In this document: positions 5,946 to 34,458 of the stretch, one piece after another
How positions within the stretch are numbered: the stretch's first letter is position 1
Layout of the letters: each line of letters begins with the position of its first letter
UHGV virus genome: UHGV-0025829
DNA: 39,837 nucleotides
Reading direction: 5' to 3' (one strand)
DNA from: a virus
Made by a program: the position numbers and the translations under genes
Notes under the pieces: model-generated
The model's input: the letters and a program-made list of their open reading frames with translations, nothing else
What the model was told of the DNA's origin: nothing
Database searches by the model: none

Positions 5946-6026
5946 AACTTGTTACCTCGGTCTGTTACCGTTGAGGTAATGATTATGCGTATTTGGTTTG
6001 GTGTCAATAGATATGAGTTAAAAAAA

Positions 6027-6098: not shown

Positions 6099-6683
6099 TT
6101 ATTGTTTGTTTTTTTCGTTCTGGTTGATGACAAATTCAATGTAACTTTCGATCTTTGCTTTCTCGGTTTCGGGTAACAATGCGTAGCGCGAGCGGTCATA
6201 GTTGATGGTCGCAGGGTCGTGCGGGTGAATCAGTAATTCATAGCCGTGACGCCCGAATGCGGATGCAACATTCTCCAGGGTGGAAATGGAAACGCTGACC
6301 TCATTGTTTAACAGGCGGCTGATTGTCACCTGGGCGACGCCGGATGCGCGGTGAAGTTTTCCCTGTGTTGAAAGGTCGCGGCTTTCGCTCATCCAGCGTT
6401 CCAGGTTGTGAGCCGCCAGCTGACCTATATCGCTCGGGCCGACAGGCTGAAAACCTTCCTGAGAAAGCGAGCGATCGATATCAAGCCAGTTACGGGGTTT
6501 ATTGGCGGCAGCTTCAATTTTTCGCGCAACCTGGTCGCCGATAACCTTCTTGCCAAGAGCCCAGCGGTTTACCAGATTTGCCTGAGTTCCAAGTTTTTCT
6601 GCCATCCGCGTCTGAACACCATTGAATTCACGGTCGATCAAGTCGTTGAGATTTTGCCTGCGGACGTCCTGGATACTTTTCAT
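6099..6683 (-). CDS. Immunity repressor (CI-like), two HTH domains, no recognisable S24 peptidase domain
   Basis: Divergent from the Cro-like gene with operators between; HTH segments MAEKLGTQANLVNRWALG and ASGVAQVTISRLLNNEVSVSISTL; no Ser-Lys autocleavage motifs seen. Confidence 0.7.
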   Translation of the reverse strand: MKSIQDVRRQNLNDLIDREFNGVQTRMAEKLGTQANLVNRWALGKKVIGDQVARKIEAAANKPRNWLDIDRSLSQEGFQPVGPSDIGQLAAHNLERWMSESRDLSTQGKLHRASGVAQVTISRLLNNEVSVSISTLENVASAFGRHGYELLIHPHDPATINYDRSRYALLPETEKAKIESYIEFVINQNEKNKQ

Positions 6684-6738
6684 TTTCTGGAAAATCGCCT
6701 CATATATGAATCAGTAGATGATTCAATTTAAAGCAATA

Positions 6739-6801
6739 TTACCCAACAGGTAAATGCACCCCATAGGTAACTATCCTTGATTTTTGTTACCTTATGGGTG
6801 A
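6739..6801. promoter_or_regulatory. Right operator cluster: three sites (6739..6753 perfect, 6756..6770 and 6787..6801 half-degenerate) in the divergent promoter region
   Basis: TTACCCAACAGGTAA, GCACCCCATAGGTAA and TTACCTTATGGGTGA between repressor start and Cro-like start. Confidence 0.65.
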
Positions 6802-6837
6802 ATATTTATTATCTGAAATAAATATCAGGCAATAGCT

Positions 6838-9149: not shown

Positions 9150-9497
9150 ATGAGAAAACAGATACAGGCTCTTGGTCGACTCAAAACAGGCCAGATGAAC
9201 AAAACAGAATCTGCGTATTGCCAGCACCTTGAGCAGCGTAAAAGTGCAGGGGAAATCGCCTGGTATCGATTCGAGGGTATCAAGCTGCGGTTAGCTGATA
9301 ACACGTTTTATACGCCCGATTTCGCTGTGATGCTCGCCACCGGAGAGATGGAACTGCACGAAGTGAAAGGGGGATTCTGGACCGACGACGCCAGGGTGAA
9401 AACCAAAGTCGCCGCAGATCAGTATCCGTTCCGAATCATCGGGGTAACGGTTAAACCAAAGAAAGCAGGTGGTGGCTGGAACATCGAAGAGTTCTGA
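9150..9497 (+). CDS. Putative PD-(D/E)xK-type nuclease (DUF1064-like)
   Basis: 115 aa; TPDFAV...ELHEVKGG motif pattern. Confidence 0.4.
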   Translation: MRKQIQALGRLKTGQMNKTESAYCQHLEQRKSAGEIAWYRFEGIKLRLADNTFYTPDFAVMLATGEMELHEVKGGFWTDDARVKTKVAADQYPFRIIGVTVKPKKAGGGWNIEEF

Positions 9498-31668: not shown

Positions 31669-32082
31669 ATGAAGGAATTATTGCTGTTATCGGTATTTTT
31701 GATATCCGCTTGCTCGACATCCTATGATGTTTATGACGGTGTTGATAAGGCATATTGCGACAAAGTTAAAATGGATTTTTCTCTTGCCAAGACGGCGAAG
31801 GATAGTTGTATTGATCACTACGTCAAGACTTATACCAAGCCAGCCTCATCGGCATCTGATATTGCTGAAGGTGCTGTGTTTGAGTGTAACAAGGTGATAT
31901 CCATCGCAGCGAGTTCTTCATACGATGCTGCTGTATGTGCAATGGCTGAAAGAAACGGCATGTCAGTGCAAAAAATTAATAGCATGATAAGCAGTAATGA
32001 CGAAGCCAAAATAAGAACTGATATCAGCTCGGTGAAAAAAGATGCCATGAACAGAGTTGTAAAATATCAGTCATCTTTATAA
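31669..32082 (+). CDS. Lipoprotein (candidate superinfection-exclusion / moron)
   Basis: Signal peptide MKELLLLSVFLISAC with lipobox; six Cys in the mature part. Confidence 0.6.
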   Translation: MKELLLLSVFLISACSTSYDVYDGVDKAYCDKVKMDFSLAKTAKDSCIDHYVKTYTKPASSASDIAEGAVFECNKVISIAASSSYDAAVCAMAERNGMSVQKINSMISSNDEAKIRTDISSVKKDAMNRVVKYQSSL

Positions 32083-32085
32083 GTC

Positions 32086-32097
32086 GTGACATGTCAC
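32086..32097. repeat. 12-bp perfect palindrome GTGACATGTCAC (copy 3 of 3)
   Basis: Exact match 4 bp after the lipoprotein stop and directly before the terminator. Confidence 0.7.
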
Positions 32098-32098
32098 A

Positions 32099-32122
32099 GG
32101 CCGCTTTCGCGGCCTTGTTTTT
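32099..32122 (+). terminator. Rho-independent terminator ending the late virion operon
   Basis: GGCCGC-TTTC-GCGGCC followed by TTGTTTTT. Confidence 0.7.
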
Positions 32123-32282
32123 AACGAATGCCACCGCCGCCCGGGCGGGAATCCGCAGAACGCCCACCGCAGCGGGAGCCGTCAGCGGCAGTATCGCTGT
32201 CGTGCTGACAACGACCGGCAAAGGCCTGAGTTGAAGCTACCAGAGACAACAAAACGAACAGTGCAGCAAATGCTTTTTTCAT
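32121..32282 (-). CDS. Candidate small secreted peptide (53 aa)
   Basis: Signal peptide MKKAFAALFVLLSLVASTQAFA; sigma70-like promoter TTGACG-17-ATAGAT upstream; weak SD; part of a longer spurious ORF in the track. Confidence 0.3.
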   Translation of the reverse strand: MKKAFAALFVLLSLVASTQAFAGRCQHDSDTAADGSRCGGRSADSRPGGGGIR

Positions 32283-32353
32283 TGTGAAATTTCCATCTAT
32301 AAGCCACCTCAATGTGGCGTCAATGAGTGTTAGCACTGACTTTTGTTTCGTCC

Positions 32354-32376
32354 ACAAAAAATCCCGCAGCGCGGGC
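32354..32376 (-). terminator. Rho-independent terminator after the AT-rich cassette
   Basis: CCCGC-AGC-GCGGG hairpin followed by T-run on the minus strand, directly after the stop at 32377. Confidence 0.55.
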
Positions 32377-32817
32377 TTATTCTTCTTCATCATTAAAAAG
32401 CGGATTGTTATTTCCATCTGATGAAAGGAAAGGTATGTGTTCTCTTGAAAATCCAACAATGACAATTTCATTATCATTTTTTGCATAATGAATGCATTCA
32501 TTAGAATGCATTCCGCCAGGGTTGAAATTTAAGTTAATGGTATAATTCTTAAATGTGTTTGGATACCATGTTGGCCCACAATGATAATGCCAATAATTCT
32601 CTTGCTCATAATTGTCTGAGCCTGGAATTTTATCATGGTTATCATCAACCCACGAGGGCTTGTTTTTTCCAACAAGCGCCCTTCCATTGGCAACATCCTC
32701 TAAAAACCTTTGTATGATTTTTATTTCATCATCAGTAAGGAAAGGTCCGTCTACAGCGAAAGGGGTGTTGCTTTCCCCATGTAGAAAACTATTAGATATT
32801 CTAATGTTAAACTTCAA
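32377..32817 (-). CDS. Hypothetical protein, AT-rich foreign-looking gene (146 aa)
   Basis: Asn/Ile/Phe-rich, strongly AT-biased codons compared with neighbours; no motif recognised. Confidence 0.55.
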   Translation of the reverse strand: MKFNIRISNSFLHGESNTPFAVDGPFLTDDEIKIIQRFLEDVANGRALVGKNKPSWVDDNHDKIPGSDNYEQENYWHYHCGPTWYPNTFKNYTINLNFNPGGMHSNECIHYAKNDNEIVIVGFSREHIPFLSSDGNNNPLFNDEEE

Positions 32818-32837
32818 GGAAAACTCCTGATGTGCTT

Positions 32838-33005
32838 CTATTTGGAGCGAAATGCCGCCTTGAAGTCGCTAAAAGATGTTCCTGTCTGGTAAACCATATC
32901 CTTGTCGCGCTCTTTGCTTGCGCGACCAAGCATAACTTTTCCAATGACATCCCAGCATTGCTTGGCTTGTTCATTGTGCTGAGTACGATTTTTCAACGCT
33001 GTCAT
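32838..33005 (-). CDS. Small hypothetical protein (55 aa) upstream of the AT-rich gene
   Basis: ATG 7 nt after AGGAGG SD; stop 20 bp before the next start; below the ORF-track cutoff. Confidence 0.45.
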   Translation of the reverse strand: MTALKNRTQHNEQAKQCWDVIGKVMLGRASKERDKDMVYQTGTSFSDFKAAFRSK

Positions 33006-33017
33006 ATCGCGCCTCCT

Positions 33018-33032
33018 TTACCTTTAAGGTAA
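33018..33032. promoter_or_regulatory. Operator palindrome TTACCTTTAAGGTAA
   Basis: Perfect motif copy abutting the SD of the 33005 gene. Confidence 0.55.
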
Positions 33033-33098
33033 TATTACGCGAATCTACATCACATCGCCAATGATTATTTTAAAGGCACATCCCTGTGCCGCCGCCCA

Positions 33099-33810
33099 TC
33101 AGAAGAACCCAGCTTTGTCGTTGATGTACTCCGCGTGCGTCTGGATATCACGCAGGCATTTACTCACACCAACGATGTAGCAGAACATGGTGGTCAGTTC
33201 CGCCGCCGCGCCCGATACATCATGCCCGTCGTCCTGCAACTGATTCAGCAGATTCATCAGCAATGAGTTCTCCGTCAGGCCGAGAACACCAGACGGTGAA
33301 TGAATCAGACTGCGGTAGCCTGGCTTCAGTGGGGCACTGTAGGTTTTGTTCTCTATCTTCATTGCCTGTATTACTGCTGACGCCGTGGCGTTGGCTACCT
33401 GGTCGGCAACCATCTTTATGCGTTCTTCCTGCGGGAGCGAGTTTTTAATGTAACTTCCGGTGCGGCGGATCTGAGGAAGAACCTCACCTGTAACCCATTT
33501 ACGAAAGCGGTAGGGGATAGTGCCTGGTGTCACCGCATCGCGGCAGCGGAGGATCAGTGTGTAGAGGCCTGACTCGGAGATGATGTTGATCTCTTTTACT
33601 CGGCTGTCAAAAATTGCACGATGTTCATGCCCTATGTTGAACATAGACCTTTCATCATCATCCAGTTTTTCAAGTGATTGGGTGACGTTTTGGATACGCA
33701 GCGCACTACAAACGTCTTGGGCTACAAACCATGGTTGGCCATCGATAATGATGGAACGGATAGGGTTAACAGATTCAAATTTGAAGATGGCAGTTTGAGC
33801 ATTAGCCATG
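33099..33810 (-). CDS. Antirepressor (Bro-N / Ant-like N-terminal domain plus C-terminal domain)
   Basis: FKFESVNPIRSIIIDGQPWFVAQDVCSALRIQNVTQSLEKLDDDE matches the Bro-N fold pattern; ATG at 33810 with GGAGAT SD; C-terminus paralogous to the 34125..34382 product. Confidence 0.7.
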
Positions 33811-33827
33811 GTGGTTATCTCCACTTA

Positions 33828-33841
33828 GTGATTTTAATCAC
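33828..33841. promoter_or_regulatory. 14-bp perfect palindrome GTGATTTTAATCAC at the antirepressor promoter/RBS
   Basis: Lies 18 bp upstream of the ant ATG, next to the SD. Confidence 0.5.
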
Positions 33842-33963
33842 CACCGCAACGCCAATTACTGGTGGTGAACTGGACAAGGTTGGCGTACCGGCCTAAGTGG
33901 TACCGGCGTCCTTTCGGACCCCTGCCCAGCCCACCATAATTCGGATATGGCTGTGCTTAACGC

Positions 33964-33988
33964 ATAAAAAAACCACGTCTGGCGTGGT
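33964..33988 (-). terminator. Rho-independent terminator inside the ant upstream region
   Basis: ACCACG-TCTGG-CGTGGT hairpin with T-run on the minus strand. Confidence 0.5.
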
Positions 33989-34078
33989 ATGCGCCACTTA
34001 GTAACTCGGGACGCCAATCCCGGCACTGGATTTTGCCAGTACCCGATTACTATGGCACAAGAGGAGTGCGATGTAAAT

Positions 34079-34093
34079 TTACCTCAAAGGTAA
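34079..34093. promoter_or_regulatory. Operator palindrome TTACCTCAAAGGTAA
   Basis: Perfect motif copy 32 bp downstream of the small antirepressor-paralog gene. Confidence 0.55.
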
Positions 34094-34124
34094 ATATAAG
34101 CACTCCATTTGGTAATTGCAAACC

Positions 34125-34382
34125 TTATCTGGTTTGTTTTCGTAATTGTTCGGCACAATAGTCGAGATGTGTTTGCAGATCCTGCATAGACATCTGTGAG
34201 CTGGTGACGTAGTTAATCAATGCAGTCAGTTCGGCAAGTGGGCCATCGACATTAAATCCATCCTTATCGAGATCCCGGAGTAATTTCATCAAGTGCGATC
34301 CCTCCACCAGTGACCTGACGCCTCCCGGCGTGTGAATCCTTTCGGTAAATCCGTCTTCCAGTGGATAGTGATACTGCTGCAT
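34125..34382 (-). CDS. Small antirepressor-domain protein (paralog of the Ant C-terminal domain), LexA-regulated candidate
   Basis: 85 aa from ATG 34382 with GGAGAA SD; aligns with the Ant C-terminus (HxPxGV...AELT...DxQTH); LexA box just upstream. Confidence 0.6.
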   Translation of the reverse strand: MQQYHYPLEDGFTERIHTPGGVRSLVEGSHLMKLLRDLDKDGFNVDGPLAELTALINYVTSSQMSMQDLQTHLDYCAEQLRKQTR

Positions 34383-34401: not shown

Positions 34402-34421
34402 AACTGTATATTTATACAGTA
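34402..34421. promoter_or_regulatory. LexA (SOS) box AACTGTATATTTATACAGTA
   Basis: CTGT-N8-ACAG with AT-rich centre, close to the E. coli consensus TACTGTATATATATACAGTA. Confidence 0.7.
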
Positions 34422-34458
34422 GCAAATAATTTGTTTGCTATCCAGCACGTTTTGCAAA

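Follow-up and report, generated by a model that had tools for sequence, protein, structure and literature searches.

What are two small genes of no assigned function doing between the tail genes and the antirepressor gene of an Escherichia coli prophage? The locus lies in the virus genome UHGV-0025829, a stretch of 39,837 nucleotides (nt) that we analysed as a whole and call the window; it is an epsilon15-like (Uetakevirus) E. coli prophage, to which the phages HEMP4 and phiv142-3 are near-identical. Both genes of the cassette, which encode proteins of 55 and 146 amino acids (aa), lie on the minus strand (Table 1). An earlier examination made from the letters alone, referred to here as the sequence-only reading, had offered three options for this pair: a defence, an anti-defence or a toxin-antitoxin (TA) module. 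The evidence favours the third, because the larger protein is predicted to adopt a RelE/ParE fold, its partner co-diverges with it, the pair is found inserted in an Erwinia chromosome, and a YafO-family toxin gene sits in the same slot in phage TL-2011b. We consider it somewhat probable that the cassette is a type II TA-like module of the RelE fold, highly divergent and with a minimal antitoxin that has no DNA-binding domain, carried in a prophage cargo socket and probably encoding an mRNA endonuclease. The cassette was previously unannotated as a TA module, and the assignment of the fold and the analysis of the pairing are first made here.

Do the two open reading frames (ORFs) belong together? 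Both are real genes, because homologous pairs are kept in the same order across Escherichia, Enterobacter, Erwinia, Pectobacterium, Serratia, Proteus, Klebsiella and Pasteurellaceae-type phages. The 55-aa protein has few direct homologues, and partners were found instead by inspecting the gene upstream of each homologue of the 146-aa gene. Such a partner was called in 74 of the 77 IMG/VR viral loci and in every other genomic context looked up, one of these calls (L034) being an off-frame ORF and another (L065) uncertain. The pair occupies five contexts: beside a Bro-N antirepressor gene in epsilon15-like prophages of E. coli, Pectobacterium and Serratia; within the nin region of lambdoid prophages from Klebsiella; next to a DnaD-like gene in Proteus; in the head-gene region of a Pasteurellaceae phage, following the gene of a MuF polyvalent protein; and on its own in the Erwinia persicina chromosome, with accA and mtnA as neighbours. 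The divergence of the partner follows that of the putative toxin closely (r = 0.94, a value reached by none of 2000 permutations), with the partner evolving faster, which means that the two are inherited as a unit and says nothing on binding. The cassette thus shows one hallmark of type II systems, an adjacent gene pair, here with a 20-nt gap, that is conserved as a unit and mobile between contexts. The shortness of the 55-aa ORF and its lack of a family annotation might raise the suspicion that the genes are unrelated morons or spurious ORFs that are neighbours by accident. Conservation effectively refutes this explanation, to which we give next to no credence: order, spacing and homology of both genes are kept over at least eight genera and all five contexts, the co-divergence is strong, and the two genes are exchanged as one unit when the prophage is compared with TL-2011b.

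The layout proposed by the sequence-only reading was largely recovered. The small gene has the strong Shine-Dalgarno (SD) sequence ascribed to it, and the larger gene lies at the expected distance downstream and encodes a product rich in Asn, Ile and Phe (20, 11 and 10 residues, respectively, and also 11 Asp and 11 Glu). A strong AT bias had been claimed for both genes. This holds for the 146-aa gene, whose G+C content of 34.9% compares with a mean of 49.7% for the window and is the lowest of all 441-nt intervals in it, but not for the 55-aa gene, which is mildly low at 45.8%. In the enterobacterial group the putative toxin gene starts with TTG or GTG, and in Erwinia with GTG; such weak start codons are, with the nonsense alleles described below, an indirect hint of toxicity. 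The TTG start explains why the gene was overlooked in phiv142-3 (L011, MN187550.1), where the deposited annotation has only a 52-aa ORF. The idea that the phiv142-3 copy is disrupted was rejected, since the 146-aa gene is intact at 6368-6808 and 98% identical. Premature stop codons in the putative toxin gene next to an intact partner do occur elsewhere, at query residue 45 in L061 and L063 and just before the invariant His127 in L094. These amount to only two independent nonsense alleles, and they hint at the pattern that would be expected if the large protein were harmful when unneutralised.

What kind of protein does the larger gene encode? The sequence-only reading had found no known motif in either protein and had named profile hidden Markov model and structure-prediction searches as the way to check its proposal. 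The profile searches bore out the first point. Neither Pfam nor NCBIfam gave a match at E ≤ 1 for the 146-aa protein, both were also empty for the 55-aa protein, and PADLOC-DB 2.0 held no defence-system match at E ≤ 1 for either cassette protein or for four neighbouring proteins. In PHROGs the two proteins are full-length members of phrog_5954 (146 aa, E 6e-74) and phrog_8607 (55 aa, E 4e-39), both families without assigned function, and RefSeq labels both proteins hypothetical. The 146-aa family forms 36 clusters at 90% identity in Enterobacterales and Pasteurellaceae, and an exhaustive profile search extended it to 119 representatives at 50% identity. Forty-five of its distant relatives had no match in Pfam, and in PHROGs they matched phrog_5954 only. 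We found no literature on the 146-aa/55-aa family, including among publications on TA systems of Uetakevirus.

Structure prediction was more informative. The AlphaFold2 model of the 146-aa protein, computed with the family alignment as input, has a predicted local distance difference test score (pLDDT) of 91.4 and a predicted template modelling score of 0.86. It is a compact alpha/beta domain with an N-terminal strand, two helices and a three- to four-stranded antiparallel sheet, which is the RelE/ParE arrangement. The top Foldseek matches were YafQ, ParE2, RelE and YoeB, with target-normalised TM-scores of 0.54-0.61 and E-values of 0.1-0.7, which are not significant; the BFVD collection of viral structures gave nothing for this model. 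On the strength of the model, a remote relation to the RelE/ParE fold is likely. Over 87 family sequences His79 and His127 are invariant, and Gly50, Asn52, Lys53, Ser55, His77, Tyr78, His110, Tyr111 and Phe130 are conserved in at least 90%, giving the family motifs G-K-N-K-P-S-W, W-H-Y-H-x-G, I-H-Y and S-x-x-H-x-P-F. Conservation in distant relatives does not extend to the two Cys residues in WHYHCG and ECIHY. In the model Lys51, Asn52 and Lys53 lie on or at the edge of strand 2, Trp76-His77-Tyr78-His79 on strand 3 and His110-Tyr111 on strand 4, while Ser124, His127 and Phe130 are found at the end of the last strand or past it. The conserved His, Lys and Tyr residues of strands 2-4 and the C-terminal tail would therefore occupy the region of the RelE-type active site, as placed by secondary-structure order only. 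The tail, G-x-S-x-x-H-x-x-F, may resemble the catalytic tails of YafQ (G-T-H-x-x-x-F) and RelE (R81...Y87).

The same residues could be read differently. Zinc sites are classically built from an HxH motif on one strand and a further His on the strand beside it, and His77, His79, His110 and His127 could form a metal site of carbonic-anhydrase-like geometry instead of, or besides, an acid-base ribonuclease (RNase) centre. The acidic surface of the 146-aa protein, moreover, speaks against ribosome binding. The cassette might in that case still be a TA pair whose toxin is a metal-dependent enzyme using His77-x-His79, His110 and His127, or else a ParE-like gyrase poison, although ParE proteins lack a conserved catalytic His set and the possible likeness of the C-terminal tail to those of YafQ and RelE speaks against it. 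We judge this version improbable, and the RNase mechanism is favoured over a ParE-like or a metal-dependent one. In HigB, YoeB and YafQ, catalysis proceeds via His, Glu and Tyr and not via basic residues (PMC7180214).

What, then, is the small partner? The 55-aa protein is basic, with an isoelectric point (pI) of 9.8, and its predicted model consists of one long and one short helix, in which no ribbon-helix-helix, helix-turn-helix (HTH) or AbrB fold is found. Partners differ widely in length: those of enterobacterial phages have 55-65 aa, that of Erwinia 58 aa and that of Proteus 62 aa, while Klebsiella-type phages have partners of 99-121 aa and a group of about 40% identity has partners of 163-211 aa. 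All of them, from 55 to 211 aa, share a C-terminal module of about 45 aa that amounts to the whole of the 55-aa protein, with the consensus ...W-x-x-I-G-x-V-x-L-G-R...D...Y-x-x-G-x-S-F-x-D-F-K-A-A.... A Pfam search with seven of the longer partners returned nothing meaningful, leaving their extensions without a recognisable domain. A second hallmark of type II systems, an antitoxin that carries a DNA-binding domain and regulates its own operon, is thus not seen in the 55-aa partner, judging from its model, from Pfam and from the palindrome in front of the cassette, which belongs to the phage backbone.

If the cassette is a TA-like module of this kind, it might work as follows. The 146-aa protein would be a His-dependent endoribonuclease in the style of YafQ, HigB and YoeB that probably cuts mRNA on the ribosome and so arrests translation. 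The 55-aa protein would bind it and block its active site, the C-terminal segment Y-x-x-G-x-S-F-x-D-F-K-A-A being expected to lie over the His cluster, and its better start codon (ATG compared with TTG) would ensure that it is present in surplus. Release of the toxin, either by antitoxin decay once the prophage is lost or by an infecting phage shutting off transcription, would arrest growth, and the outcome might be prophage addiction or abortive infection. Transcription would be set by the phage backbone and not by the antitoxin, from a promoter that bears the same palindrome as is found around the repressor gene and ahead of the antirepressor gene (ant).

Which parts of the locus belong to the cassette and which to the phage? 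Comparison with TL-2011b gives a clear answer. By BLASTN, positions 32084-32400 are 95% identical and positions 33017-34101 are 82% identical between the two phages, and nothing alignable lies in between; TL-2011b carries in place of 32401-33016 a 59-aa gene and a gene for a 181-aa YafO-family toxin (PF13957, 26.3 bits). The exchange junctions fall just past the palindrome on one side and within the last codons of the 146-aa gene on the other, so that the promoter, the palindrome and the terminator are all parts of the phage backbone. TL-2011b indeed keeps the palindrome upstream of its different cargo and the terminator in the shared flank. The slot, which has the Bro-N gene on one side and a gene for a small membrane protein on the other (32401-33016; loci L001, L096 and L097), is a cargo hot spot of E. 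coli epsilon15-like prophages. Its occupants are the present pair, the 59-aa gene with its YafO-family companion, a single DUF4760 gene, and a 108-aa gene with a gene for a DUF2335 membrane protein. At least four alternative cargoes are therefore known from one position, in keeping with the cargo island proposed by the sequence-only reading, which had also placed the pair correctly between tail genes and the antirepressor; the neighbours are tail and ejection genes on one side and a Bro-N antirepressor gene on the other. Among 5426 complete E. coli genomes, the left flank of the slot is present in 538, the cassette in 77 and the YafO cassette of TL-2011b in 61.

How is the cassette controlled? 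As had been noted from the sequence, an operator copy stands upstream of the pair and an intrinsic terminator downstream. The operator copy is one of 11 instances of the palindrome TACC-N5-GGTA in the window, where 0.17 would be expected. Nearly all of them are intergenic, and many directly follow a TAnnAT-like hexamer. They flank the gene of a 194-aa HTH repressor (6099-6683) on both sides, at 5966, 6028 and 6740 and with degenerate neighbours, and they precede int, ant (34080), the cassette and several early and late gene blocks. Such a genome-wide operator set is reminiscent of the 'stoperators' of mycobacteriophages. The cassette promoter itself is sigma-70-like with 8 of 12 consensus matches, one that falls under the scan threshold of 9 of 12. 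Every epsilon15-like locus of E. coli has the palindrome at -214 relative to the toxin start; most of the other settings of the pair lack it.

Its resemblance to an antitoxin site deserves mention, since the palindrome of the MqsA antitoxin, AACCT-N3-AGGTT, has a core equal to the phage core ACCT-N3-AGGT (PMC4894380). That the palindrome might serve the cassette as an operator of its own, bound by the antitoxin, was rejected: copies lie around the repressor gene and ahead of ant, the site is kept upstream of the YafO cargo, and it is missing where the pair occurs in Erwinia, in Proteus and in most other settings. Being part of the backbone, it speaks against autoregulation of the classical kind by the antitoxin. 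Control of the cassette probably lies with a phage regulator, in the simplest case the 194-aa immunity repressor. The converse rule, that the palindrome is always an operator of the resident phage, is not fully true either, since one copy occurs in a lambdoid prophage of Klebsiella whose CI is different. In this prophage of Klebsiella quasipneumoniae (L018) a single TACCATTAAGGTA occurs in 20.5 kb, at 9392-9404, and the CI/Cro region is without such a site. A distance of 54 nt separates this copy from the downstream operon of three genes (95, 102 and 161 aa) that holds the homologous pair, and the 15-mer TTACCATTAAGGTAA at this place recurs unchanged upstream of the pair in Pectobacterium. The Klebsiella site is probably left over from a transfer that included the promoter.

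Several observations weigh against a TA-like module and have to be set beside those in its favour. At the sequence level there is no tie to a known toxin family, as Pfam, NCBIfam and PADLOC were empty, and a profile search of PDB sequences with the 146-aa family returned noise only. By hhalign, the 87-sequence profile reached a probability of 0.3% with the YafO family of TL-2011b, 1.2% with E. coli YafO and at most 0.5% with YafQ, HigB and YhaV; of the single sequences used for E. coli YafO, YafQ, HigB and YhaV, that of YafO alone was confirmed by Pfam. The local alignments obtained are short and, though they match up elements that make topological sense, have no weight statistically. The 146-aa protein is acidic (pI 4.9, net charge of the core -3), which is atypical, and together with its basic partner it forms the inverse of RelE/RelB; across the family the pI ranges from 4.5 to 10.7. 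Confidence in the model of the 55-aa protein is moderate (pLDDT 74). Finally, the operator-type palindrome suggests repression in the lysogen, which fits poorly with a constitutive addiction or defence module. On the first of these points, RelE-type toxins share just 11-20% identity among themselves (PMC7180214), and a missing similarity to toxin families is therefore not unusual.

Some of these observations would suit a non-toxic phage accessory module that reuses a RelE-like fold and is expressed when the repressor is lifted, whether as a modulator of the antirepressor or of the choice between lysis and lysogeny, or as an anti-defence protein with a small adaptor. The cassette lies directly downstream of the Bro-N antirepressor gene and in the same orientation, the hairpin that follows ant (33075-33090) has no T-run, so that read-through is possible, and the palindrome of the cassette promoter is common to the ant promoter and the immunity region. 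The acidity of the large protein, unlike RNA-binding toxins, and the want of any toxin family profile match point in the same direction. We nevertheless regard an accessory role of this type as unlikely. The pair is also found away from antirepressors, in the lambdoid nin region, in the head-gene region next to MuF and alone in the Erwinia chromosome, and so acts as an autonomous unit; the invariant set of His, Lys and Tyr has the look of a catalytic centre; and the alternative occupant of the slot in TL-2011b is an annotated toxin cassette.

The TA-like reading can be extended into a fuller and more tentative picture, which as a whole we consider rather doubtful. In it, phrog_5954 would be a new branch of the RelE fold with a four-histidine (HxH...H...H) catalytic or metal centre, and the antidote would be a portable module of about 45 residues that occurs alone (55 aa) or behind unrelated N-terminal domains (up to 211 aa). 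The epsilon15-like 'socket' would consist of promoter, immunity-type operator and terminator and would also take YafO, DUF4760 and DUF2335 cargo. With no self-regulation and with the operator supplied by the socket, firing of the module would be coupled to the state of the prophage repressor, and translation might be shut off on induction or superinfection.

Table 1. Positions in the window of the cassette genes, of their signals and of related sites
Feature	Position	Strand	Remarks
55-aa gene	33005..32838	-	ATG start; phrog_8607; putative antitoxin
SD sequence AAGGAGG of the 55-aa gene	33018..33012	-	6-nt spacer to ATG; read from sequence
Intergenic spacer, 20 nt	32837..32818	-	AGGAG at 32828..32824, 6 nt ahead of TTG; read from sequence
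146-aa gene	32817..32377	-	TTG start, not ATG; phrog_5954; predicted RelE/ParE fold, putative toxin
Intrinsic terminator CCCGCGCTGCGGG + ATTTTTTGTG	32353..32375	-	G+C-rich stem-loop followed by T-run (32375..32363), immediately past the stop codon of the 146-aa gene
-35-like hexamer TTGGCG of the cassette promoter	33056..33061	-	18 nt to the -10-like hexamer; inferred, weak promoter
-10-like hexamer TAATAT	33032..33037	-	abuts the palindrome
Perfect 13-bp palindrome TACCTTAAAGGTA	33019..33031	.	phage-backbone operator-type site across the predicted transcription start
Exchangeable cargo segment	32401..33016	.	YafO-family cassette in its place in TL-2011b; from BLASTN flanks
Bro-N antirepressor gene (ant)	33824..33099		same orientation as the cassette, directly upstream
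TACC-N5-GGTA palindromes, 13 bp each	211, 5966, 6028, 6740, 7125, 9071, 9133, 12116, 15276, 33019, 34080		
Near-copies of the palindrome	34460, 6788		

The surroundings of the cassette hold further features. On the side of the tail genes, a 137-aa cargo-like gene on the plus strand (31669-32082; 39.4% G+C, phrog_8691, function unassigned) encodes a lipoprotein-type signal (…LISAC), and a 54-aa cargo-like signal/anchor protein is encoded on the minus strand (32121-32285; phrog_14503, 'membrane associated protein', moron category). These two genes are separated by a bidirectional terminator at 32098-32115. On the other side, the ant leader of about 270 nt (promoter-like site at 34093-34122, ant start at 33824) contains a terminator-like hairpin, ACCACGCCAGACGTGGT followed by TTTTTTT, on the minus strand at 33972-33988, which may be a control point for ant by attenuation or antisense. 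Further upstream, a perfect LexA-box-like sequence, CTGTATATTTATACAG, is located at 34404-34419, about 22 nt upstream of an ATG at 34382. RefSeq annotates an 85-aa gene from this ATG, and a 110-aa ORF starting from TTG at 34457 is therefore probably over-extended. The product of the 85-aa gene matches the antirepressor C-terminal families phrog_450 and phrog_1760, which suggests an SOS-controlled small antirepressor; this would fit a repressor that has HTH domains and no S24 peptidase domain.

How does the cassette compare with known systems? The predicted fold of the 146-aa protein is like that of the toxins of YafQ-DinJ, HigB-HigA and YoeB-YefM, with a beta1-alpha-alpha unit followed by an antiparallel sheet, and with His-dependent RNases of the RelE/ParE type it shares an adjacent small partner gene and probably also the placement of conserved His, Tyr and Lys residues on the sheet and the C-terminal tail. 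It differs from RelE/ParE toxins in being about 50% longer (146 compared with 84-95 aa), with an extra helix (68-73) and a 28-residue loop (80-107). Sequence similarity to RelE/ParE systems is not detectable, the toxin is acidic, and the partner is basic and without a DNA-binding domain. The YafO cassette of TL-2011b (gp45 and gp44, PF13957) uses the same slot, promoter with palindrome, and terminator, and its layout is alike, with an upstream protein of 59 aa (pI 10) and a downstream protein of 181 aa that is acidic (pI 5.8), yet neither protein is homologous to its counterpart here (BLASTP E ≥ 1.5, hhalign 0.3%). Pfam assigns TL-2011b gp44 and E. coli YafO to the YafO family and not the 146-aa protein.

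The closest parallel in wiring is paaR2-paaA2-parE2 from the cryptic prophage CP-933P of E. coli O157:H7, likewise a prophage-borne system with a RelE/ParE-fold toxin that is tied to a phage-type repressor network. Its antitoxin, PaaA2, is small and is not known to have a DNA-binding domain. That system differs in having its own regulator, paaR2, inside the operon and in its toxin being a ParE; the cassette has no third gene, its operator is of the resident phage's own type, and binding of the repressor to it is inferred. The paaR2-paaA2-parE2 system has been described as a TA system within a prophage regulatory network that has a separate CI-like regulator (PMC8630535). If our interpretation is true, a function would be given to a 'hypothetical' family of 119 clusters (50% identity) that about 1.4% of the complete genomes of E. 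coli carry, and a very divergent, enlarged and His-rich branch of RelE/ParE would be added to the known toxins, together with a new minimal antitoxin module. The Uetakevirus socket, from ant to the small membrane-protein gene, could be mined for toxin and defence modules, as the P2 and P4 hotspots were. The cassette would also be the second natural example, after paaR2-paaA2-parE2, of a TA pair that may answer to the repressor of its prophage and not to its own antitoxin.

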